A stretch of DNA of 64,000 nt from an uncultured bacterium (GTDB lineage: Bacteria > Verrucomicrobiota > Kiritimatiellia > RFP12 > UBA1067). Made by a program: the position numbers and the translations under genes. The notes beneath the pieces were generated by a model. It had not been told where the DNA came from. It was given only the letters and a program-made list of their open reading frames with translations, and made no database searches. Positions 17,518 through 46,400 of this stretch are shown piece after piece (position 1 is the stretch's first letter; each line of letters starts with the position of its first letter). The stretch covers positions 3,390 to 67,389 of the forward strand of contig CACYNF010000002.1 in NCBI GenBank assembly GCA_902775595.1, written 5' to 3'.

Positions 17518-17726
17518 AGTATCGCCCCTCCCGCAGCCATCTTGTCTATCCTGATCGGAAGACGCCGCTTCTTCAACGCGTCCCTCGACGCATAGTAGTT
17601 GAGGAGCTTGATGGCGTCCGCCGCCGAGTGGTTCTCGACGACCTGTCCGTCAACCTCCACCTTCCTCGGCGAGAGGAGGAGGTTCTTTGCGATTTCCTCT
17701 ATCTCGGATTGTTCCATAGTCGTCAA
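17514..17726 (-). CDS. head-tail joining protein gpW-like (70 aa)
   Basis: 68-70 aa protein directly upstream of portal and downstream of GpA terminase block as in lambda (A-W-B order). Confidence 0.4.
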   Translation of the reverse strand: MTTMEQSEIEEIAKNLLLSPRKVEVDGQVVENHSAADAIKLLNYYASRDALKKRRLPIRIDKMAAGGAIL

Positions 17727-18741
17727 ACTCCTTTCCGCTTTCGACAGCGTCGATTCGCTCGCCGACCCAGCGCATCATGTTCACGCACATCGAGTTGCCG
17801 CACGCATGATGCCTGTGGCCGTCTGCGGCGTGCTCCTTGCCCTTCCACGGGATGTCCGTCCAGCCGGGCGGAAATCCCATGAGAGACTCGGACTCCACGG
17901 GGAGAAGTCGCCGCAGCTGCGCCGGGGTGCAAACGACGTTCACGTGGCTGGAGCGGAGCGTGTACATCGCCGCGCCCGCCTCGTCGTAACACTTCGTCTT
18001 GAGATTACCTGTCCGCCCCTCAAGGTTCATCATGTCGATGGGGAAGCACTCCGCTTCAGGACGCGCTCCAGCATCGGCGGCATCGCGTACCCGAGCCTCG
18101 CGGCACGGCGGAGCAGAGCCTCCGCATAGCTCGCCGCCAAGCAGTACCTCTGCGGCGCGGGTCCAGTCTCCACGAAATCCGACAAGGATGACACGACGCC
18201 TTCGCTGCGCGACCGCCCCCGGAAATGAGGGAACTCTGGTATATCTTGCGTCCAGCACCCGCCACGAAACGCCGAAGCTTCCGGGCGCATTGGCGACGAT
18301 TCCCGAATTCTTCCATCCTCCGTCGGGGACTTCGACGTCCCAGCCCGCGAGCCTGGAGAGGAAGGTTGCGAAGTCGCGCCCTCCATTGATGGAAAGCACG
18401 GCTGGGACGTTCTCCCATACGAGCCATCTCGCGTCCGTCCTTTCAGCCAGCCGGACAAACTCGATGGTGAGGCTTCCGCGAGGGTCGGCGATCCCGCCGC
18501 GCTTCCCGCCGGAAGAGAACGACTGGCATGGCGTCCCGCCGACAAGGAGGTCGATTGTTCCATCGTAGCCTCCCTTCTCAATCTTCGTGAAGTCGCCGAG
18601 GTTCGGAACCTCCGGCAGACGGTGCTTCAGGACTTCCGACGCGAACGGCTCGACCTCCGAGACGAACGCGCAGCGCCAGCCGAGGGGACGCCATGCGACC
18701 GTCGCGGCCTCGATCCCGCTGCACACGCTACCGTACCGCAT
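17650..18741 (-). CDS. DNA (cytosine-5)-methyltransferase (363 aa)
   Basis: Motif I YGSVCSGIEAA, motif IV GGTPCQSFSSGG, motif VI ENVPAVL; start MRYGSV internal to track ORF; 3' end overlaps gpW-like ORF by about 77 nt. Confidence 0.8.
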   Translation of the reverse strand: MRYGSVCSGIEAATVAWRPLGWRCAFVSEVEPFASEVLKHRLPEVPNLGDFTKIEKGGYDGTIDLLVGGTPCQSFSSGGKRGGIADPRGSLTIEFVRLAERTDARWLVWENVPAVLSINGGRDFATFLSRLAGWDVEVPDGGWKNSGIVANAPGSFGVSWRVLDARYTRVPSFPGAVAQRRRRVILVGFRGDWTRAAEVLLGGELCGGSAPPCREARVRDAADAGARPEAECFPIDMMNLEGRTGNLKTKCYDEAGAAMYTLRSSHVNVVCTPAQLRRLLPVESESLMGFPPGWTDIPWKGKEHAADGHRHHACGNSMCVNMMRWVGERIDAVESGKEFDDYGTIRDRGNRKEPPPLAEEGGG

Positions 18742-18831
18742 GGCGTCCCCTCCTTTCGCTCTGCCGGCAACCTGCCGATGGCGGCTGCGGTGAAAAACAA
18801 CAAAAGCCGCACCGCACGCACTCGTCAGGAC

Positions 18832-18895
18832 AAGGGCCGCGCCACCGCGCCCCACAATAATATATACAACTGCCGAAGCAAAATAGTGAGAATTA
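18832..18895. repeat. conserved about 60-bp intergenic element, copy 1 (second copy 35408-35465)
   Basis: cccacaataatatatacaac(t/c)gccgaagcaaaat(a/t)gtgagaatta(t/a)ttttca present at both sites in same orientation, about 93% identical. Confidence 0.6.
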
Positions 18896-18954
18896 TTTTT
18901 CACTTTTTTGCGTCGGAGTCCGAAAGAGCGAAACCCCTGGCGGCCGCGATGTCA

Positions 18955-23399: not shown

Positions 23400-24041
23400 T
23401 CAACTGTAGATTGTTTCGCAGATGGCCACGATATGGCGGCACAGCTCGGCGGGCAGTTTCGCCCGGACGGCCTTGCCTTTCAGTCCCTGCGTGCCAGTCC
23501 TCGACCCGCGAGGCGCGGCGTCGTGGCAGGGAGCGCCCCGCTTGCACGGCGGGCGGAACTGCGGATAGGGGTGGTTCGTGAAGATGTCCGTCGGCTTCTG
23601 CCGCCTCTCGCCGTACTGGCAGTACGTCACCGTGTGGCGGCTACCGCCGGTGTCCTTGAGGAGACCCAGTATGAACGGCATCTTCCGCAGCATCCCGACC
23701 GGGTTCTCGACGAACCACACCTTCGGCTTCAGCTGGCGGATGAGGTCGCATACATGGGCGTTGACCGCGTCGCACCTTGCGGCGTATTCCGTCTTCGGAT
23801 TCGTTCCGTCTCGGTGCCGCGAGATGCACATGACCGAGTACGTCGTGCAGTCGGGGCTTGCCCAGATGACGTCGGGATGTCCGAACCGAGCGACGATTTC
23901 GTCGGCGGTCAGCTTCCCTATGTCGGCGTTCCAGTCGGGCTTAAGCGCCTCGCTCCAGTCCACGGTAAGCGTCCTGTGCCCGCGCTTCCTGAACGCCGAC
24001 GACAGGACGCCCGTCCCGGAGAAGAGCTCAAGCACCCTCAT
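23400..24041 (-). CDS. short C5-cytosine methyltransferase-like protein (213 aa, no obvious target-recognition domain)
   Basis: LELFSGTG (motif I), ASPDCTTYS (PC motif), VWFVENPVGML (ENV motif). Confidence 0.55.
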   Translation of the reverse strand: MRVLELFSGTGVLSSAFRKRGHRTLTVDWSEALKPDWNADIGKLTADEIVARFGHPDVIWASPDCTTYSVMCISRHRDGTNPKTEYAARCDAVNAHVCDLIRQLKPKVWFVENPVGMLRKMPFILGLLKDTGGSRHTVTYCQYGERRQKPTDIFTNHPYPQFRPPCKRGAPCHDAAPRGSRTGTQGLKGKAVRAKLPAELCRHIVAICETIYS

Positions 24042-25287
24042 GTGTGCTTTCCTCCGCTTCGGGCGCCGTCGACGTGTCGGATGACGTCTCGCCGGACTTT
24101 GGCGTAAGCTTCTGCCAGTCGCAGCCCTCGCCGTGGACGAACTCCGCCCACCTGCGGCGGATCACGTCGCAGTACTTGGGGTCGAGTTCGACGCAGCGGC
24201 ACACGCGCCCCGTCCTCTCGCAGGCGATCAGGGTCGAGCCGCTGCCGCCGAACGTGTCGAGGACAACGTCGCCTCGCTTCGAGGAGTTGCCGATCAGGTA
24301 GCACAGCATGTCGACCGGCTTCATCGTCGGGTGGACGTCGTTCTTCTTCGGCTTGTCGTACTCCATGACCGTCGTCTGCGAGCGGTCGGAGTACCAGCTG
24401 TGCGCCTCCCCCTCCTTCCACCCGTAGAGGCACGGTTCATGTATCCAATGGTAGTCCTGACGTCCGAGGACGAGCGACTGCTTCTTCCAGATGAGGCACT
24501 GGCGGACGCGGAGCCCCACGTCGAAGCACGCGCCACGGAAGTTGTACCCTTCCGAGTCGGCGTGGAAGATGTAGAACGAGGCCCCCGGCTTCATGCGCTT
24601 CTCGGCGCAGCCGAACGCGGCGCGCAGAAACTCGCGGAACTTCGTGTCCTCCATCGAGTCGTTCTGGATCGACTGTCCGTCCGAGCCGTGGTAGTCCACG
24701 TTGTACGGAGGGTCCGTTAGCCAGAGGTCCGCCTCGCCGTCGCCGCACACTTTCGCGACGTCGTTTGGCTGGGTGGAGTCGCCGCAGACGAGGAGGTGGT
24801 TGCCGAGCCGGTACACCTCGCCCGGCGTCGAGACGGGGATCTCCGGCGTCTCGGGGACGGCGTCCGGCTCGGTCTCGCCGTGCGTACCCGCCTCGCCGCC
24901 GAGGAGGTCGTCCAGCTCGTCGTCGCCAAAAGCGAGCAGCGAAAGGTCGAACCCCGCCTCCTGCAAAGCGGACAGCTCGACCTTCAGCTTGTCCTCGTCC
25001 CACTCGGCGATCTCCGCGATCTTGTTGTCCGCGATCCTGAGCGCCTGCTCCTGCTCCGGCGTGAGGTCCGTCGCGATGATGCACGGCATCGTCTCCCAGC
25101 CGAGCTTCTTCACCGCGAGAAGCCGCGTGTGTCCCTCGATGATGACCTTGTCCTTGTTGAGGACGGCGGGGTTCCTGAAGCCGAGCTTCTCGATTATGTT
25201 CGCGAGCTGCTCGACCGCTCCCTCGTTGATCCTGGGGTTGTTCTCGTATGGAACGATCTCCGACACGGGGACGTTCACGATTTTCAT
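24028..25287 (-). CDS. ParB-like N-terminal domain fused to N6-adenine/N4-cytosine DNA methyltransferase (419 aa)
   Basis: N-terminal VPVSEIVPYENNPR ParB-type box; TDPPYN catalytic motif; C-terminal DTFGGSGST. Confidence 0.75.
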   Translation of the reverse strand: MKIVNVPVSEIVPYENNPRINEGAVEQLANIIEKLGFRNPAVLNKDKVIIEGHTRLLAVKKLGWETMPCIIATDLTPEQEQALRIADNKIAEIAEWDEDKLKVELSALQEAGFDLSLLAFGDDELDDLLGGEAGTHGETEPDAVPETPEIPVSTPGEVYRLGNHLLVCGDSTQPNDVAKVCGDGEADLWLTDPPYNVDYHGSDGQSIQNDSMEDTKFREFLRAAFGCAEKRMKPGASFYIFHADSEGYNFRGACFDVGLRVRQCLIWKKQSLVLGRQDYHWIHEPCLYGWKEGEAHSWYSDRSQTTVMEYDKPKKNDVHPTMKPVDMLCYLIGNSSKRGDVVLDTFGGSGSTLIACERTGRVCRCVELDPKYCDVIRRRWAEFVHGEGCDWQKLTPKSGETSSDTSTAPEAEESTHEGA

Positions 25288-25303
25288 CCTGCTCGTTTCC
25301 ATC

Positions 25304-27193
25304 TCAATTCTCCTCTGTGTGTTTCATGTCGTAGTTCTGGATTCGCTGGCATATCCAGCGGGCGCAGTTGACCGCCCATCCGTTTCCGAGCGCCTTGTAC
25401 CTCGGCGTGTCGGGGCAGTCCTCCGCGCTCTTCCCGCGATACGGGATCTTCGTGTATCCGTCCGGGAGTCCCTGGAGCCTTTCGCATTCGAGCGGCGTCA
25501 GCCGCCGGACGATGTAGTCAATGGCGACGGCGAGGAGGTTGTCGCCCATGTCGGAGCGGAGCGTCGACGCCAGCTCGGACATGAATCTGTGCAACGCCCC
25601 TTCGCGCCTCGCTATCCCCGGCTCGAAAGAGACCGCGCCGGGACCCTTGGCGACCACCGTCGGCGCGCACTCCTCCTCGACAGTGAAGCCGAACTGCGCG
25701 TTCCTCCCCTGGTTGAAGGACGCGCGGTCGAGCCCGATTGCCACGGCGTGCGGATCGGTCCCGTGCGCCGCGAGAATCGTAGGGGACGCGCCGCTCGTGT
25801 CGGTACCGGCCCCCGTCTTTCTCGCGCCCATGTCGAACACGCCGACGACCTCCTCGACGACCGCCGTTCCGCCCTGGTGCTTCACGGGTGCGGAATCGAC
25901 AGTCGTCAATGTAGGAGCGCACTCGACCTCGCGGCATCCGCTCTTCGGGTTCTTCGACTTCATCGCGTTCGACCCCATTGAGTCGATTGCGTATGCGACC
26001 GCGTGCTGGTCGCGCGCTGTCAGCGTATAGGACGCGCCTTTCTCCGAGACGCCGAACCCAGCGCCGCCCTTCCGGACGGGCTTGTCGGCGTTCGTCGGCT
26101 TGTTCTTGTCCATGTCGATTGCGACTACGGCGTCGGTCGGCACGACGACGAGCGGGTTGTTGTTCGCCGCCTGCGCGTTGTGGGTAGCGCCCATAGTCGG
26201 GGCGACATCGACCTGCACGGTCCTCGCGTCCGTCTGGTGGTTCTCGAAGCATACGGCGTTGTGGTAGCCGGGCGACGATCCGTTGACGAGCGCCCCGCTC
26301 ACCTCGGGGCTCGCAGTCTTGACGCCGCCCGGCTCGTAGGGGTCGAAGCCGGACGGCTGCATGACGAACACCCCCGACCTGTCGGCCTGCCCCGTGAGGC
26401 GCTTCGTCAGGTCGGTGGCGTTCAGCGTCGGCATCACGTCTCCGCCGTTTGCGTTCGTCGGAACCGCGCGATCTGCGCCAGCAGAGCCGCCTTGAGGCGG
26501 ACGGGTAAATCCTTGCCCCGTGATGCGGCGCGGCGCAGTATCCCCGCGCACGCCTTGAGGCTCAAACAGTATTTCCGCAGGTGCTCGCCAACCGTCTCCA
26601 GTATGTCCGACAGTCCGCATACCGACGAGCCAAACTCTCCTTCTGCGCTGCGGAACCGCTCTGGGCAGCCCGTCCACTCGCACGTACTGAGCGTCCAGAG
26701 TCCGGTAGGCAAGAGAATACCCGCATTCCCCAATCGAGCGGACGAAGTGCGCGAAGTCGCGCCCTCCGTTGCTGGTGAGAACTCCCGGCACGTTCTCCCA
26801 AAGTACCCATCGAGGTTGTAGCTCACGACAAAGTCGCGCAAAGTGGAAGGCAAGGGAGCTGCGGGTGCCGCTTCCCTCCGCCATGCCTTTCCTCTTCCCC
26901 GCGACCGACACGTCCTGGCACGGCGTGCCGCCGGCGAGGACGCCGAGACGCCCGGCAAGTTCAATGACATCTGTTCCATTCGTTATCCTCCATTTCTCGT
27001 CGCCGACCATCTCGGCTGTGATCTTCGTCATGTCCCCGAGGTTCGGAACCTCGGGGTATCTGTGCGCCAGAAGCGAACACGGGAACGGCTCGATCTCCGA
27101 AAAGAAGACGGGCCTCCATCCTCCGAGCGGCGTCACCGCCGCGCTCATGCACTCTATCCCGCTGCACACCGTCGCGTATGTAAGTTCCTTCAC
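25304..27193 (-). CDS. DNA (cytosine-5)-methyltransferase with large variable region (629 aa)
   Basis: ATVCSGIECMSAA, GGTPCQDVSVAG, WENVPGV, C-terminal ALGNGWAV; GTG start preceded by AAGGAG and overlapping upstream stop (GTGA). Confidence 0.8.
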   Translation of the reverse strand: MKELTYATVCSGIECMSAAVTPLGGWRPVFFSEIEPFPCSLLAHRYPEVPNLGDMTKITAEMVGDEKWRITNGTDVIELAGRLGVLAGGTPCQDVSVAGKRKGMAEGSGTRSSLAFHFARLCRELQPRWVLWENVPGVLTSNGGRDFAHFVRSIGECGYSLAYRTLDAQYVRVDGLPRAVPQRRRRVWLVGMRTVGHTGDGWRAPAEILFEPQGVRGDTAPRRITGQGFTRPPQGGSAGADRAVPTNANGGDVMPTLNATDLTKRLTGQADRSGVFVMQPSGFDPYEPGGVKTASPEVSGALVNGSSPGYHNAVCFENHQTDARTVQVDVAPTMGATHNAQAANNNPLVVVPTDAVVAIDMDKNKPTNADKPVRKGGAGFGVSEKGASYTLTARDQHAVAYAIDSMGSNAMKSKNPKSGCREVECAPTLTTVDSAPVKHQGGTAVVEEVVGVFDMGARKTGAGTDTSGASPTILAAHGTDPHAVAIGLDRASFNQGRNAQFGFTVEEECAPTVVAKGPGAVSFEPGIARREGALHRFMSELASTLRSDMGDNLLAVAIDYIVRRLTPLECERLQGLPDGYTKIPYRGKSAEDCPDTPRYKALGNGWAVNCARWICQRIQNYDMKHTEEN

Positions 27194-27807
27194 GATTTCT
27201 CCTTCCGTTTTTCCATGTACCGTTTCGCGGCGATCTTGCCTTCGAGGATTCCCATCCTCGGCCTCCGGCTGCGGCTTGGCCAGGGGATGTCCTTGTATGT
27301 CCCGCCCCGGCGTATCCAGTCGACCACTGCGTTCGACAGCCCCAGCATCCTGGCTATCCGGTAGGCGGCGAATCCGTCCCATAGAAGCTCCTTGACCTCT
27401 GCCGCGAGTTCGTCGCTTATCGTCCTCCTCGTCGGGTGCGGATGCCGTGCGTTCAGGACGATCTGCGCCCCCGTGATAAGTCCCGTCCTGTAGGCATGGC
27501 GGACGTTGTCGAGGTGCGACACCCATTCGAGGTTCGCGTAGTGGTTGTTGAGCTTGTTGCCGTCCTTGTGGTTCACCTCCACCTTGCCCACGCCAGTCGG
27601 CTTTTCGCAGAAGCACTCGGCTACGATGCGGTGGACCGCCTCTGGCCGTCCGTTTATGCCGACCCTGTAGTAGCCGCCGCAGCGGTGTCTGCCAAGATGC
27701 GGCTTCAGCAGCCTGTATCCTTCCCGGTTTTTGTAGTGCATGCAGAACACCATCCCGTCCTCCGTCACGAGGTAGCGACCGGCATAGATTTTCGCCCGTT
27801 TTCGCAT
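27190..27807 (-). CDS. HNH homing endonuclease (205 aa)
   Basis: NHKDGNKLNNHYANLEWVSHLDN HNH motif. Confidence 0.7.
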   Translation of the reverse strand: MRKRAKIYAGRYLVTEDGMVFCMHYKNREGYRLLKPHLGRHRCGGYYRVGINGRPEAVHRIVAECFCEKPTGVGKVEVNHKDGNKLNNHYANLEWVSHLDNVRHAYRTGLITGAQIVLNARHPHPTRRTISDELAAEVKELLWDGFAAYRIARMLGLSNAVVDWIRRGGTYKDIPWPSRSRRPRMGILEGKIAAKRYMEKRKEKS

Positions 27808-27995
27808 GGTTTTGCCTCCTGAAAAATTTTTGCGCGAAGAAAGAAAGTTAGGTTAGTAGGGGGGCTCCTTCCCGCGCCCTGCCTTTGAGAGGGCTTTAGG
27901 GAGGAACCGTGGCCCCGGCGGGACATATCGTCCCGGCCGCCCGAGGCGGGTCGACTTCCGCCGCCCAGGGGCTTGATTTTCCTCTCTTTTGGCCG

Positions 27996-28025
27996 TTGAC
28001 TTGTCGCGCTCCGCTATGGCATAAT
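27996..28025 (+). promoter_or_regulatory. sigma70-like promoter on plus strand firing into the iteron/origin region
   Basis: TTGACT (27996-28001), 18-nt spacer, CATAAT (28020-25). Confidence 0.35.
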
Positions 28026-28099
28026 GTGACGCGTCGGCCACGCCGGGGTATTTTGGGGTTCCTTTCCCCAAGGTTTTCGTCCCCCGTCGCGGCCGGCGC

Positions 28100-28415
28100 T
28101 TTCATTTCGCGGATTTGCCGTTTTGCCGATTTGCCGTTTTGCGGCCGCCGTATGCAGCGGCTCGGATCGGATTCCCGTTTTGCGGGTTTTTTACACAGGG
28201 TATATTTATATACCCTGTAAAAACGGCAAAACGGGGAATCCCGACCGCTGCCGGGACAGGCAGACGGACGGTTTTGCCGTTTTGCGGGGAGAGGCCGCAA
28301 ATCGGCAAAACGACGGATTTCTATCTCAACCCGCATTTTCCGCGATTTGCGGGCCGACCGCAGAACTCCGCGCGCTCGTTTTGCGGGCCGCCCCGCAAAA
28401 CGGCAAAACGATGAA
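28100..28415. repeat. iteron array with central AT-rich dyad: candidate origin of replication
   Basis: At least 8 copies of TTTGCCGTTTTGC-like motif in both orientations (28112-28143 tandem, 28174-86, 28219-35, 28271-89, 28295-316, 28343-56, 28377-410); perfect 11-bp inverted repeat ACAGGGTATAT-TT-ATATACCCTGT at 28195-28218 inside an about 73-bp imperfect dyad. Confidence 0.55.
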
Positions 28416-28416
28416 A

Positions 28417-30501
28417 TCATGATTCCTCCTTCTGCTCGCTCCGCGAGCCGCGAAACACAAGCTTCACCGGGCCGTCGCCGAAGGGCGAGCCCTCGCCCCT
28501 TCTGCACATGACGTAGCCGTTCGCAAGCGCCTCGTCGAACACGCATCTCGCCTTTGTCCGCGATAGGTCAAAGGTCTTCTGTATCTTCAGGACGAAGCTC
28601 GTCTTCGGCTCCGGCTTACCCTCGTCCACAAGATCCGCGACGCGGGTCGCAAGCTCGTCGATCTCAAGGACTGCATCCGCGCCGTGCTTCGGCATCTTCT
28701 GCTCCGCCTTGCCAGCCAAGTCCTCCGGGCTGCGGTTGTAGTCGGGCACCATGAGCGGAAACGCCTTCTGCAGCACAATCGGCTCCTGGCGCGGGAACGA
28801 GCGGACGACCGCCTCCAGTACGAGGTAGCCGTCGTCCTTGTGTTCGCGGAGGATGAGGTGCGTGTCGGCGGCGCGCGACTGCGAGCCCGCGCCAGCGCCC
28901 ACGTCCGTTATCGACTTCTGCGACTGGTTTCCCTTGGACGTGTGGTGGATGAGGACGAACGAACACCCCACCTGCTTGGCGAAGGTGTCGATCAGGTTGT
29001 AGATGCCCGCTATCGAGCCGTTGTCGTTCTCGTCCGTGTCCTTCGGGAGGGCGCGGTAGAACGCGTCAATGACGATCATCCTGTACCCCGCCTCCCTGAA
29101 CTTCGGAAGCCACGCGGCGAGGTCTGCTATCGACTTCCACTTGCCGCGCAAGTTCCACACGTCGATCATGTCGTCCACGTTGGGAAGCGATGGGTTGACC
29201 TTCCGCATCGCCTCGACGACGAGCGGGATGCGGTTCGCGGACGTCTCCTCGTGAAGCTCGTTGTCTATGAGAAGCACCTTCCCCGGTGCGCATGTGTGTC
29301 CGAACCAGTCAGTCCCGGAGGCGACGCAGATCGCAAGCTGCGTCACCAGCCACGACTTGCCGGTCTTCGGCGCGGCGATGATGTTCATCGTCTCGCCGAT
29401 CCTGAGGAAGCCGTCGATGAGGACGGGGCGCATCTCCGGGAATCGCCTCTTGAGCGTCCCCAGCGGGATAGGCCCCTCCTCCGGCTGCGGCGACACACAT
29501 TGACCGGGGGCCGATGTAGGCTTCAGGCTGAACGTCACGCCCAGGGTCGGCTCCTTCGCTCTGCCGTAGCCAAGTGTGTGCAAAGCCGAGGCCGCCGCAG
29601 TGAAGTCGCCGCCATGACGCAGCGTCGCGTAGACCGCGAACGGGCTGTACTTGACGTTCGGCTCGAAGGGAGCGGCGTTCGACGAAAACACATAGAACGA
29701 GCCGTCCTTGTATGTCGCGGACATTCCGTTCCTCGGGTCCTTGCCGGGACGCGTCCACTGCTCGTTGCCGTCGGCCTTGAGGCCGCAGAACTGCCAGCCA
29801 GCGTCGGCGAGGAGCGGATGGATGTCGCCACGGGCGTTGAAGTCGTCCCCCGGCGGCAGTTCCCAGGCGTCCTTGCCGCCCGTCGGGGCGAAATCCGCGC
29901 CACGTTGCCCCGTGTCGCCTCCGGCGGGGGCAGGCGGGCAGTTTGCCGCAGGAAGCTCGTCGAGCGAACGTGCGGCGTCCACGAGGGCTTGTCGCGCAAC
30001 GGCGGTGAGGACGGGCAGTTCGGCGAAGTCCCCCTGCTGGAGGACGTAGCCCTCCGTCGGGGCGCAGAGGAAAAGACCGCCCTCTCCCCGCGTTTCGATC
30101 AGCGTCTTCTGCTTCCCGTCGCGGATGCCGCGCGCCAGCTTCAGGTTGCCCTCCACCGGCTCCTCCGAGCGGTAGAACACATGGTAGCCGCCGGACGGCG
30201 TCTGCTCGATGACGAGCTTCGCGAGAAGCCCGGTGTCGACCTTCTCCATCCACGCGGCGAAAAGCTCTCCGTGCTGGTCGAAGTCCATGCACTCGAGGTT
30301 CCCGGAGACAGCCCCTGCAACCACACATATCGCGTCGTGCGGGTTCGAGAACCAGGCGCGTACCTCGACCTCAGTCGGAAGCCGCGACTGCCAGTTCTTC
30401 CACGACCCTATCGCGGGGTGCTTCCTCGCCTTCGTCGCGGGAAGGCACGAGAGGCCTGCCGCGAGATACGCCATCGCCGTCGCCACGGGTATTTGAGCCA
30501 T
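28417..30501 (-). CDS. bifunctional primase-polymerase (Prim-Pol N-terminal) fused to AAA_25/RepA-like helicase ATPase, C-terminal winged-helix-like (694 aa)
   Basis: N-terminal LAAGLSCLPATKARKHPAIGSWKNWQ Prim-Pol-like; Walker A APKTGKSW, VLLIDNE. Confidence 0.75.
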   Translation of the reverse strand: MAQIPVATAMAYLAAGLSCLPATKARKHPAIGSWKNWQSRLPTEVEVRAWFSNPHDAICVVAGAVSGNLECMDFDQHGELFAAWMEKVDTGLLAKLVIEQTPSGGYHVFYRSEEPVEGNLKLARGIRDGKQKTLIETRGEGGLFLCAPTEGYVLQQGDFAELPVLTAVARQALVDAARSLDELPAANCPPAPAGGDTGQRGADFAPTGGKDAWELPPGDDFNARGDIHPLLADAGWQFCGLKADGNEQWTRPGKDPRNGMSATYKDGSFYVFSSNAAPFEPNVKYSPFAVYATLRHGGDFTAAASALHTLGYGRAKEPTLGVTFSLKPTSAPGQCVSPQPEEGPIPLGTLKRRFPEMRPVLIDGFLRIGETMNIIAAPKTGKSWLVTQLAICVASGTDWFGHTCAPGKVLLIDNELHEETSANRIPLVVEAMRKVNPSLPNVDDMIDVWNLRGKWKSIADLAAWLPKFREAGYRMIVIDAFYRALPKDTDENDNGSIAGIYNLIDTFAKQVGCSFVLIHHTSKGNQSQKSITDVGAGAGSQSRAADTHLILREHKDDGYLVLEAVVRSFPRQEPIVLQKAFPLMVPDYNRSPEDLAGKAEQKMPKHGADAVLEIDELATRVADLVDEGKPEPKTSFVLKIQKTFDLSRTKARCVFDEALANGYVMCRRGEGSPFGDGPVKLVFRGSRSEQKEES

Positions 30502-35407: not shown

Positions 35408-35465
35408 CCCACAATAATATATACAACCGCCGAAGCAAAATTGTGAGAATTAATTTTCAAGAAAT
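35408..35465. repeat. conserved about 60-bp intergenic element, copy 2
   Basis: See copy 1 at 18832-18895. Confidence 0.6.
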
Positions 35466-37539: not shown

Positions 37540-38010
37540 CTACTGGCCGAGCGGCGGCCACAGGCCGTTCTCGGATATCAACTCCAGCACGAAGTCGCAG
37601 TTCATCGTGCGGTGCGGCGCACTCGCCCGCTGGTGCTGCTCCTCAAGCTCCGCGTCCGTCCACGTCGGCACGTATACGCTGGCGTAGCGGATCATCCCGT
37701 CCCTGACGGCGGCGTATATGTTCGTAAGCGCGGGATGCGTAACGCCGTCCGTGATCCTCACGAGGCGCATTGCGGAATTCGAGACCGCCTCTCGTCCGGA
37801 GAACGACCTGTCGTACTCCCACATGATGTGCGCCGCGACGAGGTCGTTCGAGTTCACCGCAAACCTCTGCTGCGCCAGCTCGTAGACGTTCGTGAAGTTC
37901 CCGTTCCACCAGTCATTGGTGACCGAGTGGAAGTTGTCAGCTGTAGGCGCTGCGGTGGTTGTTATTGCCAATGCCGCGACAAAGGCGGCGATGATGCTCC
38001 CAATTTTCAT
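37540..38010 (-). CDS. secreted hypothetical protein (signal peptide), 156 aa
   Basis: MKIGSIIAAFVAALAITTTAAPTA signal-peptide-like N-terminus. Confidence 0.5.
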   Translation of the reverse strand: MKIGSIIAAFVAALAITTTAAPTADNFHSVTNDWWNGNFTNVYELAQQRFAVNSNDLVAAHIMWEYDRSFSGREAVSNSAMRLVRITDGVTHPALTNIYAAVRDGMIRYASVYVPTWTDAELEEQHQRASAPHRTMNCDFVLELISENGLWPPLGQ

Positions 38011-38029
38011 ATGTTGTTTCCTTTCTTCT

Positions 38030-40924
38030 TTATTGAATCAGCCCTTCCCAACGCCCACGGTTGATCATTTCCGGGGAGCGGAAGAAGTAGTTGTAGTCGA
38101 TTACCGCAAGAGGCGACACATCGACGTGGTTGTCGGTTGGGGTGGGGTTGGGCCAGAGATTCCTCGCCTTCTGCGGGAGCTGCGGCCACATCTGCCTCGC
38201 GACAAGGCTGCCCACGCTCTGTGCATTCCCACCTGCGGCAAGGCTCTGCCCCGCCGCCCAGCTCCAGTTGCCAGTGGCGTCGTTCGCGGTTCCGATGCGC
38301 TGCGCGGCCTCCTGATTCTCATGCGTCACGCCGAGTATTTCACATCCGTACCCGCACACGAAGTTCGAGAGCTTCGCCATAGGGACGGGGAAACCGTACC
38401 ATGTCGAGACCGCGCCAAGCCCGTTGGTGTCAACCACCTGGTTGTAGCGCCATACGGTCCGCCACAAGGCGTTGTCCACGCGCCCGCGATAGTCGCCGCA
38501 GCCTGCGATGACGAACCACTTGACCCCGAAGTAGGCGTCGTTTCGCTCCTTGAACGTGTACTTGTCGACAAGTCCGTTCATGATTGTCGCAACCTTCGCG
38601 AGATCGCCCTCAAACACCGCGTCGACAGTCGCGCCCGCGAGCGGAAGGACGATGTTCCCCTCCGTCCACGGACAGCCATCGCAGCGCCCCCTGAAACGAT
38701 ACACACCTCCCTGCACAGGATTCACGAACCATGCCTCGAGCCCGCCCTCGTGCAAGAGTGACCCGCTCATCTGCGGCTTCGCCTCCACGACCTCCCAGTC
38801 GCAGGGCAGAGACGATCCGTTCACGCCCGCCGGAGCGAGGACAAGGCTCATCTGCACCGAGAAGTTCGTGACCGAGAACCCGTCGTCGCCCAGGGCCGCC
38901 ACATTGCAGAACGGGACCACGAGATGCCTGTCCGGGGCGAGGCTGTTCGTAATCGAGAACGGACACAGCGTCTCGCCGTCGAACGGAGGCGGGTTCGCGC
39001 TCGTCCCAGCGTAGTCGCACGTCATCGCGAGATTCGTCACGCAGGCGACCGTGAGGCACGCCGTGTTCGTGTGCGACACGCCGTTGACCTCGCTCACAAG
39101 CCGGAACTCGACGTCGCCTATTCCGTCGCTCACGGCCACGCCCTGTATCTCCATCCAGCCGTTCCCCTGCGAGAGGATCGCTATCTTGTCCGCACCCGCC
39201 GTGCATTCAAGAGACATCGACGCCTCAGCGTTCGACGAGTCGGGCGGATCGTACACGCCGGCGACGATGTGGCTGTACCCGCCGCGCATGACGACGCTCG
39301 GAGCGGAGAGGGATACCCATGCCGACGTGTTCGTCTCGTTCACTCGCTGGCAGCCGCACTGCGCCTCCCAGTCGAAGGCCTTTGCATACCCTTCCCAAAG
39401 AGCCGTAACGTGCCACGTCTGCGAGTAGCCTGAGCAGTGGCAGGAGTCGCAGCAGTTCCACACATAGTTGCTGCCCGTGCATTCGACGGCGCAGCAGTTC
39501 CCCGTCACCGAGCCGATCACCACCCCAATGTCGGGATCGCTCATGACATGCCCACCGTTCTCGCCGCCCTGAAGGTCGATGTCAATCGGCCTCTCGACCT
39601 CGAAGTCGTCGCTCGGACCCATTCCGCCGCCAGCCCCCAGAAGCCGCAGTCCAGGCAGTGGTAGATTTGATGGCTGAACTGCGTTCAGCCTAACCACGGC
39701 CTCCGCATCGCTCGACCCAATGTCCTCCACAGGCCAGCTCGCCGTGACGTGATAACTCGCACCCATCAGGAGCGGCACCTCGCACACCTGCCCCTCGTTC
39801 GCGATCACAACGAGGTCGCCGAGGTTGCTCGCCCCGTCGCAGGCAACCGCAATCCGCGTCCTGTCGCGCATCGGCGTGAACGACAGCCAGTAGTAGGCGT
39901 TCGCGTTGGCGTTCGTGTTCCATACGATCTCGTAGCCGCCGTCGTTCGTCGGAACTGCCGTGAGGACGCCGCCGCAGTTGGCGTTGAGCCAGTTCATGCC
40001 GGTTCCATAGCAATCGCCGTCCGAGGCTGTCGGCCACCAGTCGATCAGGTTGTCGATTCCGTCGCCGTCCCAGTCGTGCGGGTCGATGCGCCGGAACACG
40101 CGAAAAAGGTTGTTGCTTCTCACTGTGAAGTCGCCGGTCTCGTTCAGGACGATCTGCGCGTTGACGGCGTTGTTCGTGTCGCCGCCCGCGAAGAACCGCT
40201 CCCACGTGACGGTTCGCGTCCCTTCGCCCGCGTGTGCCCACAGGCGGCTTTCCCCCTGCTGGGCGAGGACATCCCCAAGTCCTGCCGACGGAGCGAACAC
40301 GGGGCCGCACAGCGCGTCCTGGAGCCTTCCGTCCAAGAACCACCAGAAGACCGAGGTCGCCGCATTACTTGGCCCGTATGAAAACGTCCAACCAGTCGCC
40401 TCTCCGCCGATTGCATCGAGGTCGACAATGTGCTTTCCGAAGTCTGACCGGACACCGTGCTGGTGAAGCCGCCCGATGTACACGGCGTTCGACGGCATGG
40501 CAAAGGAATGCCCCGTTTCCATCGTCTCGTAGTCGAGCCTGTAGCCCCGCGCTATCTCCTCCGCCGTCACCGTCGCCTCGGGCTCCCCCTGCCCCGTGCG
40601 CAGCATTGCTGGCCGAGCTGCGCTCGGCCTCTCCACTATCCTCAGTCCAGATGGCTGCGAAAGGCTCGGCAACGCCCCAGCCATGCCCCCGCCCGGCGAT
40701 GGCGCGTTGGCGGGCGGCTCGTTCGTGCCGCCGCCGTTTCCAGGCTTCTGGGCCTCGACGGTAGCGACAACCGCCATAACCGCCAGCAGCGCCTGCGCCA
40801 TTCGCGGCAGCGCCTTCAGCTGCCACCATGCAGTCTTGAGCTGCTTCCGCAGGAGGGCTACGGCGAGCATCCCGTAGAAGAACAGCCCAGCGGCAACCGC
40901 GACTATATTCCAGTTTACTTCCAT
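38030..40924 (-). CDS. large membrane-anchored/surface protein, Cys-rich (964 aa)
   Basis: N-terminal TM helix; CC..EC.G..Y.WNCCDSCHC cluster; no phage family recognised. Confidence 0.5.
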   Translation of the reverse strand: MEVNWNIVAVAAGLFFYGMLAVALLRKQLKTAWWQLKALPRMAQALLAVMAVVATVEAQKPGNGGGTNEPPANAPSPGGGMAGALPSLSQPSGLRIVERPSAARPAMLRTGQGEPEATVTAEEIARGYRLDYETMETGHSFAMPSNAVYIGRLHQHGVRSDFGKHIVDLDAIGGEATGWTFSYGPSNAATSVFWWFLDGRLQDALCGPVFAPSAGLGDVLAQQGESRLWAHAGEGTRTVTWERFFAGGDTNNAVNAQIVLNETGDFTVRSNNLFRVFRRIDPHDWDGDGIDNLIDWWPTASDGDCYGTGMNWLNANCGGVLTAVPTNDGGYEIVWNTNANANAYYWLSFTPMRDRTRIAVACDGASNLGDLVVIANEGQVCEVPLLMGASYHVTASWPVEDIGSSDAEAVVRLNAVQPSNLPLPGLRLLGAGGGMGPSDDFEVERPIDIDLQGGENGGHVMSDPDIGVVIGSVTGNCCAVECTGSNYVWNCCDSCHCSGYSQTWHVTALWEGYAKAFDWEAQCGCQRVNETNTSAWVSLSAPSVVMRGGYSHIVAGVYDPPDSSNAEASMSLECTAGADKIAILSQGNGWMEIQGVAVSDGIGDVEFRLVSEVNGVSHTNTACLTVACVTNLAMTCDYAGTSANPPPFDGETLCPFSITNSLAPDRHLVVPFCNVAALGDDGFSVTNFSVQMSLVLAPAGVNGSSLPCDWEVVEAKPQMSGSLLHEGGLEAWFVNPVQGGVYRFRGRCDGCPWTEGNIVLPLAGATVDAVFEGDLAKVATIMNGLVDKYTFKERNDAYFGVKWFVIAGCGDYRGRVDNALWRTVWRYNQVVDTNGLGAVSTWYGFPVPMAKLSNFVCGYGCEILGVTHENQEAAQRIGTANDATGNWSWAAGQSLAAGGNAQSVGSLVARQMWPQLPQKARNLWPNPTPTDNHVDVSPLAVIDYNYFFRSPEMINRGRWEGLIQ

Positions 40925-41600: not shown

Positions 41601-41740
41601 ATCCCCTCTTTTTAACCTTGCGCGACTCTCTCGTGAGAATTCCATAAATGAAGATATACCCCCTCGTGCGGCAGTTTGCAAGGGCATATCAGACACTTGC
41701 AAATTACGGCATTTGCAGAAGAAATGATATAATACGCAAC

Positions 41741-42424
41741 ATGAGAAAAGCACTAATTGTTGAAGACGACCCTGACTCGGCCGAGGGCTTCAAGATCATC
41801 CTCACTCGCATGGGGTTTGAGTGTGTCGTCGACCCAATCGGAGACATGGCAATCAAGTACCTGTCGAGCGGAGAGTTCGACATCGCAATCATGGACATAG
41901 TCCTCAAGACCAGGATGACCGGCAGCGACATCATCCATGCGGCCAGAGAGCTTGGCGTCAAGACTCCCATCATCGGAGTAAGCGACAAGAGAGGACCAGC
42001 CGACCGCGCAAAAGACCTCCGCGCAGGAGCCACGGACCACATGGAGAAGCCGTGCCACCCTGCGGAACTTCGAGAGCGTGTCCTCAAGGCAGTGAACGGA
42101 CAGGACACGGACACCTATCTCGTCTCGGACGACATCATACTGGACGTAAAGACCCGCACAGCACGGCGCGGTGACAGGGTTCTGAAGCTCCGGCGGCTCA
42201 GCTTCGACCTGCTGACCGTCCTCATGCGCGCCAAGGGCGATTTTATCCCAAGCGCACGTCTGCGCGACACTCTCGGACTCATGCCGAAGTGCGAGGAAAC
42301 AGCCCCACTGGACAAGAACGGCTCGCTTCGTATGGCAATCCTCCGACTGCGCGAAGAACTTACCAGTAACGGCGAACGAGACCCCATCCACCACGAGAAG
42401 CCAAAAGGATATGCGCTATTTTAA
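41741..42424 (+). CDS. OmpR-family two-component response regulator (227 aa)
   Basis: Receiver ALIVEDDPD...DIAIMDIVL plus winged-helix C-terminus; internal start MRKALIV. Confidence 0.8.
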   Translation: MRKALIVEDDPDSAEGFKIILTRMGFECVVDPIGDMAIKYLSSGEFDIAIMDIVLKTRMTGSDIIHAARELGVKTPIIGVSDKRGPADRAKDLRAGATDHMEKPCHPAELRERVLKAVNGQDTDTYLVSDDIILDVKTRTARRGDRVLKLRRLSFDLLTVLMRAKGDFIPSARLRDTLGLMPKCEETAPLDKNGSLRMAILRLREELTSNGERDPIHHEKPKGYALF

Positions 42425-43466
42425 GACCCCGCTCGCCAGACGACTCTTCTGGATTGTATTCCTGTCCGTGAACGGCATGGCGTTCTTCGTCTGGCCTATA
42501 ATCGATATGATTTCCATGAGCGAGGCCACGGCCAAGGCCATCTCCAACGCTCGGGCCAATGCCACGTTCGAGGCAATCGACACACTTGTCGACCATGTTA
42601 AGCTCCTATCGCATCGCAGCTGGATTGCATTCGCCGTCAATTCAGTCGTTGGCACGACACTCGCGACGGCACTGGCATTTTTCGTTTGCCGTCCGATAGA
42701 CGGGATGCAAGAGAAAATCCGCGATCTAATCCACGACCTGCGCGGCCCCCTATCCGGAATCCTGAACGATGTCCGAATCGCCATCGACACGAAATGCAAT
42801 CTGATGGCGGCTCTCTTTTCGGTCAGGGCGAAGGCAGAATCCGTGCTGGCGACCTACGATCTCAATGCCGAGATCGTGCGGAACTACGCGGGGGTCGACA
42901 AGGGCGAAGTGTCTGACGTCGATCTCACGGAAATCGTCGAGGACTACGCGGAATTGTTCGGCGACGAGGCAGAGTCAAAAGGCGTCAAGTTCGTGGTTTC
43001 TCGGCCAACCGACGCCGTCATCGTCCGCGCCCACGAAGACAAGATGAAAAGGCTCGTCGCCAACCTCGTGGAAAACGCGGTGAAGTACACCGACAAGGGC
43101 AAGGTATGCGTCGCTCTTGCCGTAAAGAAATCAAAGTTCACGTTGACCGTCGCCGACACGGGCATCGGCATGACCAAAGACGAACAGAAGCTCATCTACA
43201 ATGAATACTATCGCACCACGCGAACCAGCGACAGGCCGGGCATCGGATGCGGACTTGCAATGATCGGCTCGATAGTAGAACTCTACAAAGGCACCATCGA
43301 CTGTGACTCCTCGCCAGGCAAGGGCACGACCTTCACCATCACCCTTCCGCTCGACCTCACTCCGCGCAAGCCGATCCTCCGCCGTGCCGTCGTCGGCTGC
43401 GGTCGCTGCGCTTCAAGCATATGCAAAAGAATACGGCGCGCCCTGGGGCGCGGGGAGCCAGCGTAG
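42411..43466 (+). CDS. sensor histidine kinase (351 aa)
   Basis: Two TM helices, H-box IHDLRGPLSGI, HATPase_c motifs (VADTGIGM, GIGCGLAM, GKGTTF). Confidence 0.8.
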   Translation: MRYFKTPLARRLFWIVFLSVNGMAFFVWPIIDMISMSEATAKAISNARANATFEAIDTLVDHVKLLSHRSWIAFAVNSVVGTTLATALAFFVCRPIDGMQEKIRDLIHDLRGPLSGILNDVRIAIDTKCNLMAALFSVRAKAESVLATYDLNAEIVRNYAGVDKGEVSDVDLTEIVEDYAELFGDEAESKGVKFVVSRPTDAVIVRAHEDKMKRLVANLVENAVKYTDKGKVCVALAVKKSKFTLTVADTGIGMTKDEQKLIYNEYYRTTRTSDRPGIGCGLAMIGSIVELYKGTIDCDSSPGKGTTFTITLPLDLTPRKPILRRAVVGCGRCASSICKRIRRALGRGEPA

Positions 43467-43496
43467 GCGAAGGTTCCGCGCACCCACATCACGTCA

Positions 43497-46400
43497 TCAC
43501 CACCAGTATCGGAAATCCTTGATGGAGAGGGAAAAGAACGCCGAGTTATCTTCGGAGAACTTTTCGTCGTATGTGACCGTGAACAGCCCGTTGGACGTCG
43601 TGTAGTTCGAGGTGTCTACCGGGAACTTGTCAGGATACTGGTACATATCGTAGCCGTATTCCTCCGCATGGGCATAGGGGGTGCCGAAATCCATATGGTG
43701 CTTTATGCCGAACATGAACCGCAGGGGCGGCTGGACGATCCGCGTTCCATCGGCGGGGACGATCTGACCGGTGACGGTGCGGGACGAGGGGTCTATTCCA
43801 ACCGCCTTCACCGCAGGGTACTTGAAGAACATCGTCACTTCCCTTCCGTCGTCTGGCTTTCTGTGATAAGGCGATATGCCGAGGTCGATGCACATCTTCG
43901 GCGCGTCGAGCGGCTCGCAGCCGGAATCGTCCTCCCAGGGATACATCGTGATGCACTCGGCAGTGCTCAATGCCTCAAAGCCCACGATGCCAGCAAGGTT
44001 ATCCAGTTCGTCGTCAGTGAGTTCGGCATTCCCAGCTCCAAATCGCTTCGGATAAATTTCTATGCCCGTGAGAGGATCTATCGTCGTGCTGCTGAACACG
44101 ACGTCGTCGATGCTCGCATTGCCGCCGAGGCCGAGAGCCGTGACCCCAGTCCTGTCCGACGCCTCGGGACGCGCCCTGAATACAGTCGATCCGTCCGCCT
44201 GGGAGCAGGCAAGGATGCCGTCGATGTAGATTCGATAGGCGAGGCCATGCGGCGAGCCGTCGTTCACCGCCTCGATCTCGACCGTCACCCAGTTGCCCAA
44301 GGGTGAAGCCAGCCCGCTTCCGCCCTCCTTCTCCGCAAGACGCACATCTCTGGACACCAGCCCGCCTACGGCATTGGCAATCCCGGCGTTGATCTGCCAG
44401 CAGCATGTACCATGCCCGTCGTCACAGTCGAAGTAGTACAGCGCGATCTTGTCGTCAATGTTGATCACGCACGCCGGCGTAAATATAAACTCAGGTCCGA
44501 TCGTGCCCGCTGACGGCGGCGCAGACGTTGGATACAGAGTAGGGTCACCCTCCGTCCATGCTCGGCTGCTGTTCTTCTTGAACGATGTCTTCAGCGTCTG
44601 CCACTTGCCGGGGACATAGCGGGGGCCAAGCCCGCCGTTCACCCTTTCGTTGACGGAGAACCACGCCCGCGCTCCATGCAGGCCACCGACCTTGACGCAC
44701 CTCCGGCCGGAATACCTGCCGTCGTCAATAGACGCCTCGAAATACAATCCCGTCACCATCAAGTGGCATGCCACCTCCGGCATGTTGGTGGCGTCCATCC
44801 ACTGCACACCGTTGTTGAAGTTGCACCGCCAGATCAGCCCCTCCACCGGATCGTCCGGCCCGTCGTCGACGCCCTCGAATCCACGGGCGACGAACGGCGC
44901 ACCCGCCGTTTCCGACATCTCGCTTGCGAGGACGGCGGGAACCCCGTCCCTGAGGCCAATCGCCATCCAGCCGTAGCGGGTGCGCCGCGTCGTGTCGTTC
45001 GCATCGGGCCACCACTTGAAAGCCATGAAGAACAGATCGCCGTTGTCATAGTCGCAGGTTGTCCGCCCTTCCGAGAACGTATCGTCGCCAATGTACGATC
45101 CGGGTGACGTCAGCGCAACATAGCCACACCCGCGGGAATGGTTTATCGAAACGTCCCAGCAGCTTTCCGTGTAGTTGAAGATGACGAAATCGAAGGCTGT
45201 GTCCCTGCGGTGCAGAATATGCGGAGTCCGTTCCGATGTCGCGTAGAAGGTGTTGGTTTCGCAGCCCGTAGCCGGGTCTACGAAGGGATCGGGCGGCACT
45301 ACTACTTCCGATCCGTTGACCAGAAGTTCGTTCTGCTCGTTGCAGATGGCGGATTCAAGTATTACAAGTTCCGCATTCTCGTCAAGGCCAAGGGAGATGT
45401 ATCCGTACCATGTATGGCTGTTCAGTACCATGTTCCGGTACCAGTTGCAGAACTCGAACACGAAGGGATAGGCGGTCGCGGACACCTCGTAGGCATGCGG
45501 CGGCATGTCGTTGTCGTCGACATAGTGCTCACCTTCCTTGGCGATCTTGACTCGCGGATCGTCAACGCCAGACCCGTGGAACACGACTTGCCAGTTGTTG
45601 GTCTCAAACCTGTCGACTGCATAGTCTATGCCTGTAAGCCCCGGCACGGTACAGGCAAGGTGCGGTATTCCCCCCGGTATAATCCTGAAGCAGTCCCGGT
45701 AGATGTAGATCCCCTCTCGCGGCTGCTCAGGCACAGGAGGATCAACGGGGTCCTCGGGAACTTCCGGCTCGTCGGGAGGCGGGTCGGCAAAGGCGTGTTC
45801 GGAAACTTCCACACCCTCCGGGATCGATATCGCCGACTTGTCGGACGTCCAACCGAAGGCATGGTCGCCGATGCGCTCTACCGTCGGAGGAACCTCGACT
45901 GGCTGGAGCGCGGCAGGCCACGCGACAAGCTCCGTGCCGGTGGCATCGTAGAGTACGCCGCCTATGGACTTGTACGCTTCATTGCCGTCCTCGACGAGAA
46001 TGGCCGTGAGGGTCGGGCACCCGACGAACGACGCGGGATCGACGTAGAGAATGTCCTGTCGAATCCTTGCCGTCGTGAGCGACGGGCAGTTGTGAAAGGC
46101 GTTGTCGAAGTCGGTGAATCCAGACGGGAGGTCTACGACTTCGAGCGACGGGCAGTTGTTGAAGGCGTAGTTTCCGAACGTCACCTCACCCTTCGGCAGC
46201 GTGACGGACTGAAGGTTGTCGCAGTTCAGGAATGCGGAAACGCCGATGTTCGTCACGCACTCGGGGATGGAAACCTCCGTCAAACTGTCGCAGTTGTAGC
46301 AAGTCATGGTGTCAAGGTTCCCCACATGCGCCGAGAACTTGACCGAGCGCATGGACTTGCATCCCCAGAACGTGTCACGCCCCATCGAGGTTACGGAATC

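Follow-up and report, generated by a model that had tools for sequence, protein, structure and literature searches.

A candidate replication origin with short repeats in both orientations beside the Prim-Pol/helicase gene of a Kiritimatiellae prophage, with a small RNA candidate at its edge

Results

The stretch of DNA analysed here, referred to below as the window, comprises 64,000 nt of contig CACYNF010000002.1 (assembly GCA_902775595.1, positions 3,390 to 67,389) from an uncultured bacterium, and its part from ~0.5 to 41 kb is a siphovirus-like prophage in which every gene lies on the minus strand. Our subject is a gap of 609 bp (27808-28416) in this prophage, examined as a candidate replication origin, that separates a gene for a protein with Prim-Pol and AAA_25 domains (28417-30501, minus strand) from an HNH gene (27190-27807, minus strand); both flanking genes are as described in an earlier note on this DNA. 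The six or seven open reading frames (ORFs) that overlap the gap match no Pfam or PHROG family, in agreement with the suspicion voiced there that they are artefacts. The gap and the adjacent gene contain the following features:

28417-30501, minus strand: replication initiator gene, 694 aa, with Prim-Pol, AAA_25 helicase and predicted C-terminal winged-helix domains
28420-28716, minus strand: segment that encodes the C-terminal domain (residues ~596-694), the proposed reader of the repeats and left half of the putative exchangeable cassette
28112-28410, no strand: repeat (iteron) array of 14 GWTTTGC copies in five clusters, the proposed replication origin
28377-28410, no strand: repeat cluster adjoining the stop codon, with one plus-strand copy (28378) facing two on the minus strand (28395, 28403)
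28271-28312, no strand: inverted pair of double repeats, two on the plus strand (28271-28286) and two on the minus strand (28297-28312)
28148-28254, no strand: imperfect dyad of 107 bp with one repeat per arm (28177-28183 plus, 28226-28232 minus)
28195-28218, no strand: central perfect palindrome with 11-bp arms, ACAGGGTATAT-TT-ATATACCCTGT
28112-28143, plus strand: four tandem repeats with an 8-bp period, forming two 16-mers, at the origin end far from the gene

In the gap, the 7-mer core GWTTTGC has 14 copies, nine on the plus strand (28112, 28120, 28128, 28136, 28177, 28271, 28279, 28344 and 28378) and five on the minus strand (28226, 28297, 28305, 28395 and 28403), which bears out and extends the previous count of at least eight motif copies in both orientations. 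The longer form CGWTTTGC is present in 13 copies on the two strands of the entire window, and 12 of these fall within the ~300 bp between 28119 and 28410; by the same count, the window contains no other repeat cluster that could be an alternative origin. When one mismatch or less is allowed, GCCGTTTTGC has 11 matches in the window, nine of them in the array, with a mean of 5.4 per whole 64 kb after shuffling. The first repeat lies 8 bp past the stop codon of the primase-helicase gene. The inverted copies in the stop-proximal cluster had been recognized before, and we find that they include a perfect palindrome with 11-bp arms (28377-28402); the tandem pair at 28112-28143 is also present but is not perfect as had been stated, its two 16-mers being identical at 15 of 16 positions.

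The dyad, whose arms had been described as iteron-like, carries a repeat in each of them, and the perfect 11-bp inverted repeat is located exactly where it had been placed; the size of the dyad, however, is about 107 bp rather than ~73 bp, and it is AT-rich only in the centre. The A+T content is 74% over positions 28187-28224, whereas the dyad as a whole has 52% G+C compared to ~65% for the genome. Within this centre lies the candidate unwinding site, 28201-28212, whose length no other A/T-only run in the phage part of the window (1-41 kb) reaches. When folded as DNA, the region 28140-28262 reaches −40.7 kcal/mol (z = −7.6), and none of 200 shuffled sequences folds as well. A search of 27000-29000 against Rfam 15 with E-values up to 1 yielded on the dyad only generic microRNA-precursor hairpins at 18-30 bits, all of them short of the gathering score set for the family in question (50-103 bits). 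The plus-strand segment 28174-28186, CCCGTTTTGCGGG followed by TTTTTT, was considered as a terminator and judged to be a dyad-arm repeat with, after it, the T-run of the AT core. Elsewhere in the phage, 38-bp stretches with at least 70% A+T occur only at 18856-18900, 35413-35457 and 37997-38042; the first two contain A/T-only runs of 10-11 bp, at least these two lie between predicted genes, and all three may be promoters.

The initiator matches the Pfam families Prim-Pol (PF09250, 7e-14) and AAA_25 (3e-30) and is assigned to DNA polymerase/primase by PHROG. The only solved sequence relative of its helicase domain is RepA of plasmid RSF1010 (1g8y; phmmer E-value 9.4e-6 over query residues 371-528). 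For residues ~589-694, an AlphaFold2 model built from an alignment of 21 sequences has a mean pLDDT (predicted local distance difference test) of 76, with a core of ~90, and the topology helix-strand-helix-helix-strand-wing-strand. Almost all Foldseek matches listed for this tail in the PDB are winged-helix domains, mostly DNA-binding regulators, including an operator-bound ROK repressor, CzrA/ArsR, SlyA/MarR, SarX and SSV1 F-93, with probabilities of up to 1.0. A profile of the tail finds nothing significant among the PDB sequences, the only match being HU with an E-value of 0.06. The structural model thus sustains the earlier impression of a winged-helix-like C-terminus, and the tail is predicted to be a winged helix.

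The initiator has 3749 protein relatives at E-values up to 1e-20, the named records being rumen Kiritimatiellae or Verrucomicrobia genome bins and IMG/VR viral contigs. Their downstream DNA was drawn from viral, genome and metagenome collections as well as assemblies; individual loci are designated here by L numbers. In every relative with enough sequence, the repeat array begins 4-36 bp past the stop codon, and array and stop codon overlap in type B. The elements keep one order: the stop codon, inverted repeat doublets, a long dyad whose arms hold one repeat each and whose centre is a palindrome, and then tandem repeats. At least 11 repeat types, unrelated in the sequence of their repeats, show this order; tandem blocks equivalent to 28112-28143 are found in L063, L064, L065 and L119. 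The repeat units and the loci that carry them are:

CGWTTTGC: the window, L003, L028, L043, L044 and L067
ATTAGTTTTG (type B): L006, L013-L015 and others
CTGTTTTC (type C): L001, L012 and L030
CGGTMGGC: L002
GCGCGACCT: L005 and L034
AGCTTTTCC: L063
GCTTTGC: L064 and L117
CGWTTCGC: L065
CTGTTTTTACGG: L118
GGTAGGCGG: L032
CGTTTTGC: L119 and L116

Homologous dyads of ~107-122 nt are present in at least 10 repeat types. The dyad base of the window, CCGGCAGCGG/CCGCTGC..CGG, is conserved across repeat types, most of which keep the form CCGGCAG(C/A)GG … CC(G/T)CTGCAT(A/T)CGG; the alternative pairs GCAGCGG/CCGCTGC and GCAGAGG/CCTCTGC point to a possible compensatory change between types. The array stays by the stop codon even where extra genes part the origin from the small RNA described below. 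For instance, L004, L005, L008 and L036 carry a normal origin after the true stop codon of the initiator, and in these loci a second AAA_25-like ORF (6422-7159 in L005) lies between the origin and the small RNA; in L005, its product, which includes a Walker-A-like GTGKS stretch, extends the tblastn match to the primase-helicase into an apparent gene of 3 kb. In the distant relative L116, a single inverted pair of CGTTTTGCC (3637-3680) follows the stop codon and a gene begins at once; this site may be a degenerate origin in a defective prophage. Some relatives also have intein-type domains (Hom_end_hint, LAGLIDADG_3 and Hint_2) in the neighbouring DEAD-box helicase and C5 methyltransferase genes (L065, 1-2269 and 5438-7091; L118, 1-1264).

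Comparison of these loci indicates which part of the protein the repeats follow. Over residues 361-600 the protein is 85-100% identical to its relatives, but only 20-40% from residue 601 onward, and the nucleotide identity likewise falls at ~28701, to recover at ~28100. Among 45 distinct loci, two members of one tail cluster have 61% of their repeated 8-mers in common, compared to 0.9% for two loci from separate clusters. Relatives in which the helicase body is 84-91% identical and the tail 24-38% identical have no CGWTTTGC at all, whereas those with a body of only 55-62% identity and a tail of 41-51% identity (L119, L116, L064 and L117) have repeats with a TTTGC core. L119 has the repeat of the window in common and a different central palindrome; therefore, the palindrome is not what the tail reads. 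The gene of L067 is ~90% identical overall, and identity rises to 93-100% (mostly 100%) from ~28701 through the origin and the small RNA to ~27920, which indicates a recent exchange of the cassette. By these comparisons, the repeat sequence changes with the last ~95 residues of the protein and not with its remainder, and the C-terminal domain together with the repeats is best described as one exchangeable specificity cassette.

At the far edge of the array, two further elements are found:

27996-28025, plus strand: sigma-70-type promoter TTGACT-18-(TG)G-CATAAT, pointing against the flanking genes
28032-28108, plus strand: candidate small RNA of ~77 nt, a hairpin RNA ending in a U-tract

The near-consensus promoter of the earlier note is indeed present and matches the consensus at 10 of 12 positions, with an additional TG extended −10 element. 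Because both hexamers and the TG persist in 15 distinct relatives in which the spacer sequence differs, we read this promoter as real; it is found in the distant L116 as well. The RNA that follows has an outer stem of 15-17 bp formed by its 5' and 3' ends (28031-28039 with 28091-28099 and further pairs), a nested hairpin in every member and a conserved internal loop, GGUUUUCGU, and its predicted folding energy is −43 kcal/mol (z = −5.5). In the 13-pair stem, 99.2% of the pairs are kept among 19 distinct sequences and four pairs change on both sides; the covariation is 0.336 compared to 0.156 for shuffled alignments, none of 500 reaching the observed value, and at most 0.079 for slid controls. 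The resulting RNA model finds a single copy in the window (28026-28112, plus strand), a segment with no match in Rfam 15. Scanning viral contigs for the exact promoter pattern yielded 48 stretches, among which the RNA model confirmed only three relatives additional to those already collected (L081, L089 and L101). Pairing of the GGUUUUCGU loop with the start region of the HNH gene, AUGCGAAAACGG, was considered and is probably due to chance, the HNH gene not being conserved in relatives.

The stem ends at 28099, the U-tract UUUCAUUUC covers 28100-28108, and the first repeat starts at 28112, with 3 bp in between. With a terminator so placed, simple read-through into the origin is doubtful; because the U-tract of the window is interrupted, and weaker than in most relatives, partial read-through is possible. 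Hence, of the proposal that the promoter fires across the iterons, the promoter itself stands while simple transcription across the array is doubtful: the element is predicted to drive a discrete, convergently transcribed RNA with its own terminator that stops at the edge of the origin. This RNA module is also separable from the origin. It is absent in L006, L007 and L029, and in L034, L005 and L116 a distance of ~900 bp or one gene lies between the two; in L116, the RNA is a variant with a largely re-written outer stem and is located, along with its promoter, ~400 bp beyond the repeats. For the small RNA, candidate roles are origin control or a barrier that keeps read-through from passing between the replication operon and the one that follows.

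Beyond the promoter lie the last two features of the intergenic region and its border:

27823-27960, minus strand: highly conserved block, …CACGGTTCCTCCC…GGGCGCGGGAAGGAGC…ACTTTCTTTC…AGGAGG-ATG, lying outside the origin and upstream of the next operon
27190-27807, minus strand: HNH homing-endonuclease gene (Pfam HNH_3, PHROG 59), directly after the conserved block

The conserved block, which also carries a GGGAC-N5-GTCCC hairpin, occurs in 24 distinct relatives irrespective of which gene comes first downstream, and may be a promoter or activator region recognized by a protein or a structured leader. The predicted stem is invariant, so that the covariation test speaks neither for nor against an RNA structure, and the block matches no Rfam family. 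Homing-endonuclease-type genes have a hot spot directly past the origin or past the conserved block (seen in the window, L005, L063, L064, L065, L012, L116 and L119): an HNH gene in the window and L008, and NUMOD4-like genes in relatives, while elsewhere a C5 methyltransferase gene follows directly.

As for the element as a whole, the structural genes encode a tape measure protein, a fused protease and major capsid protein, a portal and a terminase, the terminase gene being 7 kb from the array. The replication and recombination module, which runs from 36 to 28 kb, encodes an exonuclease, a Sak4-like annealing protein, RusA, a DEAD-box helicase and the Prim-Pol and AAA_25 protein. There are four DNA methyltransferase genes (17650-18903, 23400-24041, 24028-25302 and 25304-27616), three for C5 enzymes and one for a ParB_N-N6/N4 fusion, which is annotated as a methyltransferase (PHROG 498) and lies 2.5 kb downstream of the array; this set suggests heavy investment in restriction evasion. 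A comparison of 27190-30501 to 50,697 phage records by blastn retrieved a 67-nt match in the HNH gene only, so there is no annotated close relative, and a scan of the window for tRNA and tmRNA genes found none. In L067, an automatic gene call of 286 aa with no Pfam hit on record spans the origin, the RNA and the conserved block. The response regulator and histidine kinase pair and the 1120-aa BspA-type leucine-rich-repeat protein encoded at 41648-46859 are probably products of host genes adjoining the prophage end.

Discussion

We consider it likely, from the sequence comparisons reported here, that the region 28112-28416 is the replication origin of this siphovirus-like prophage and that the adjacent promoter belongs to a separate hairpin RNA of ~77 nt. 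The suggestion made in the earlier note, of a candidate origin for the neighbouring Prim-Pol/helicase gene, thus gains support from the recurring layout and from repeats that track the tail of the protein, with corrections to the role of the promoter and the size of the dyad.

How such an origin might function can be outlined by analogy with the Rep and PriRep proteins of the Staphylococcus aureus pathogenicity islands (SaPI), the alpha protein of P4 and ORF904 of pRN1, from which we take binding, melting and priming; the anatomy of the locus, its conservation, the predicted fold of the tail and the co-variation of repeats and tail come from the window and its relatives directly. The origin would offer 14 short GWTTTGC repeats, often as doublets with an 8-bp period, to the winged-helix tail of the Prim-Pol/RepA-like helicase encoded immediately upstream. 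Several bound copies could then assemble the helicase at the 107-bp dyad, the DNA would open at the A/T core (28201-28212) or the dyad would extrude as hairpins, and the Prim-Pol domain would lay the first primers.

Several points weigh against this interpretation. The assignment rests on comparison, and a cognate pair of domain and repeats could serve autoregulation rather than initiation. Co-variation between adjacent DNA segments can partly be explained by linkage; however, the dissociation of body and tail in the sharing of repeats speaks against linkage as the sole cause. No inflection appears at 28 kb in the cumulative GC skew, a result that says little because all genes lie on one strand. 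In type B relatives, the central palindrome is G+C-rich and A/T is confined to the flanks, so that an AT-rich centre is not universal. The Foldseek E-values for the tail are weak (0.02-0.2), as is usual for small domains, and, since the terminator U-tract is imperfect in the window, the 3' end of the small RNA is uncertain.

The main alternative is that the repeats are operators for the initiator tail or for another phage regulator, acting in autoregulation or as a switch between the replication operon and the modification-late operon, while replication starts elsewhere. The array does lie between two operons, with the conserved promoter and the conserved upstream block as neighbours, and binding sites that change together with a DNA-binding domain would be expected of any cognate pair. 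We nonetheless consider this explanation improbable: the array is downstream of the gene and not at its promoter, it stays by the stop codon when genes intervene before the next promoter, the window has no other repeat cluster able to be the real origin, and two-orientation clusters around a long dyad with an A/T core resemble experimentally defined origins (PMC9371898, PMC4234260) and not operators. The strong predicted folding of the dyad, the possible compensatory change at its base across types and the sub-threshold hairpin matches in Rfam would also suit a function in RNA, as a stabiliser or terminator in the 3' untranslated region of the replication operon, with the repeats as by-products of the hairpins. 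This appears highly improbable, given that the terminator scan finds no minus-strand terminator after the dyad, the only U-run is on the plus strand inside the left arm (28174-28186), tandem direct copies beyond the dyad, for which a hairpin has no need, make up most of the repeats, and the repeat sequence follows a protein domain.

Centromeres and packaging sites are likewise arrays of short repeats, and the ParB_N-methyltransferase fusion gene downstream of the array, or the terminase, raises the question of a partition or packaging site. We give such a site hardly any credence: the downstream genes and the conserved block are common to relatives with different repeats and only the initiator tail changes, fusions of this kind are annotated as methyltransferases, and the terminase gene is distant.

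Beyond the interpretation of the region as an origin, a more elaborate and rather doubtful scheme can be put forward, in which this locus would exemplify a hybrid class of origins. Type-specific repeats, read by the exchangeable winged-helix tail, would be set inside a type-independent cruciform scaffold of ~107-122 nt (CCGGCAG-GG…CTGCAT-CGG) that the conserved Prim-Pol/RepA-like body recognizes, in the form of a hairpin, for loading or priming, with the conserved, convergent ~77-nt RNA at the origin edge as a dedicated replication-control or origin-insulating RNA. If true, the family would supply at least 11 matched pairs of domain and repeat as a natural series, on helicase scaffolds that are nearly identical.

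Our search of the literature found no described replicon for phages of Kiritimatiellae, a largely uncultured rumen and gut group, for which the locus provides a concrete candidate for an origin and its initiator. The relatives form a natural specificity series, in which similar helicase bodies bear unrelated tails and face unrelated repeats, and divergent bodies with related tails share repeats; this series lends itself to asking how DNA is read by a small winged helix and how competing phages exchange origin specificity. Self-loading logic of the SaPI kind would here operate on a helicase with a RecA fold (RepA type) to which an archaeo-eukaryotic-type primase is fused, and the RNA beside the origin is a new, structurally supported RNA candidate.

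That an initiator gene lies beside its cognate repeat array is a textbook principle. In lambdoid phages, the initiator domain of O and the ori repeats are exchanged together as a specificity cassette; in lambda, the repeats are internal to the O gene, whose product has no enzymatic activity and binds them through its N-terminal domain, and oop, an RNA of ~77 nt with an intrinsic terminator, is transcribed against the replication genes beside the origin and overlaps cII. The candidate RNA of the window likewise has ~77 nt, an intrinsic terminator and an origin-adjacent position opposite to the replication genes. There is, however, no sequence similarity to lambda, the repeats lie past the gene, the tail is C-terminal and the RNA overlaps no gene.

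Two further systems share parts of the arrangement. P4 alpha is a multifunctional primase-helicase whose C-terminal winged helix binds origin repeats in two orientations, but its primase is of the TOPRIM (DnaG) type, its helicase belongs to superfamily 3 (SF3), and it uses two cis regions, ori and crr, as opposed to the single cluster here (in part after PMC4234260). The helicase of RSF1010, RepA (1g8y), is homologous to the one described here, and the oriV of this plasmid also combines repeats with hairpin-forming inverted repeats, which act as its priming sites ssiA and ssiB; in contrast, RSF1010 divides helicase (RepA), primase (RepB') and repeat recognition (RepC) among three proteins and has direct repeats of ~20 bp, instead of one fused polypeptide and 8-bp units in both orientations (PMC4234260).

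In pRN1, a stem-loop of ~100 nt downstream of orf904 is essential (PMC4234260), and its integrity is required; the 107-bp dyad occupies the equivalent place just past the replication gene. ORF904 and the protein of Bordetella phage BIP-1 also resemble the initiator in having a Prim-Pol domain at the N-terminus and a C-terminal winged helix, the latter predicted here. They differ in their SF3 helicase and in an origin described without such repeats (PMC4234260), whereas the helicase here is RepA-like and repeats, 14 in all, predominate and also occupy the dyad arms.

The closest functional parallel is found in SaPI, where the Rep proteins have a winged-helix C-terminal domain and 6-12 short repeats with an AT-rich centre lie directly downstream of rep, and where PriRep5 of SaPI5 is a fusion of primase and helicase (PMC9371898, with Ubeda et al. 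as cited therein). Like PriRep5, the initiator is a single polypeptide with primase, helicase and a (predicted) C-terminal winged-helix domain. The short repeats again follow the gene directly, with 7-8 nt and 14 copies here compared to 5-6 nt and 6-12 copies in SaPI, opposed repeats stand on either side of the AT-rich centre (28177 plus and 28226 minus, flanking 28201-28212), and the pairing of C-terminal domain and repeats is element-specific, with many specificities within one family, as judged here by co-variation. The differences are that SaPI Reps have AAA+ helicases of the SF3 or MCM-like (SF6) kind and not an AAA_25 domain of the RSF1010 RepA type with a RecA-like fold, that the repeats flanking the centre are here embedded in a dyad of ~107 bp with a type-independent conserved base, and that the element is a tailed Kiritimatiellae prophage rather than a satellite, with a conserved small RNA gene abutting the origin. 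Because the helicases of SaPI and of pRN1/BIP-1 belong to SF3 or SF6 and the one here is RepA-like, the locus is not a member of either group by descent. Taken together, these comparisons place the locus as a variant of an origin design already known from other mobile elements, one that would work like a SaPI origin without belonging to that group through the descent of its motor domain.

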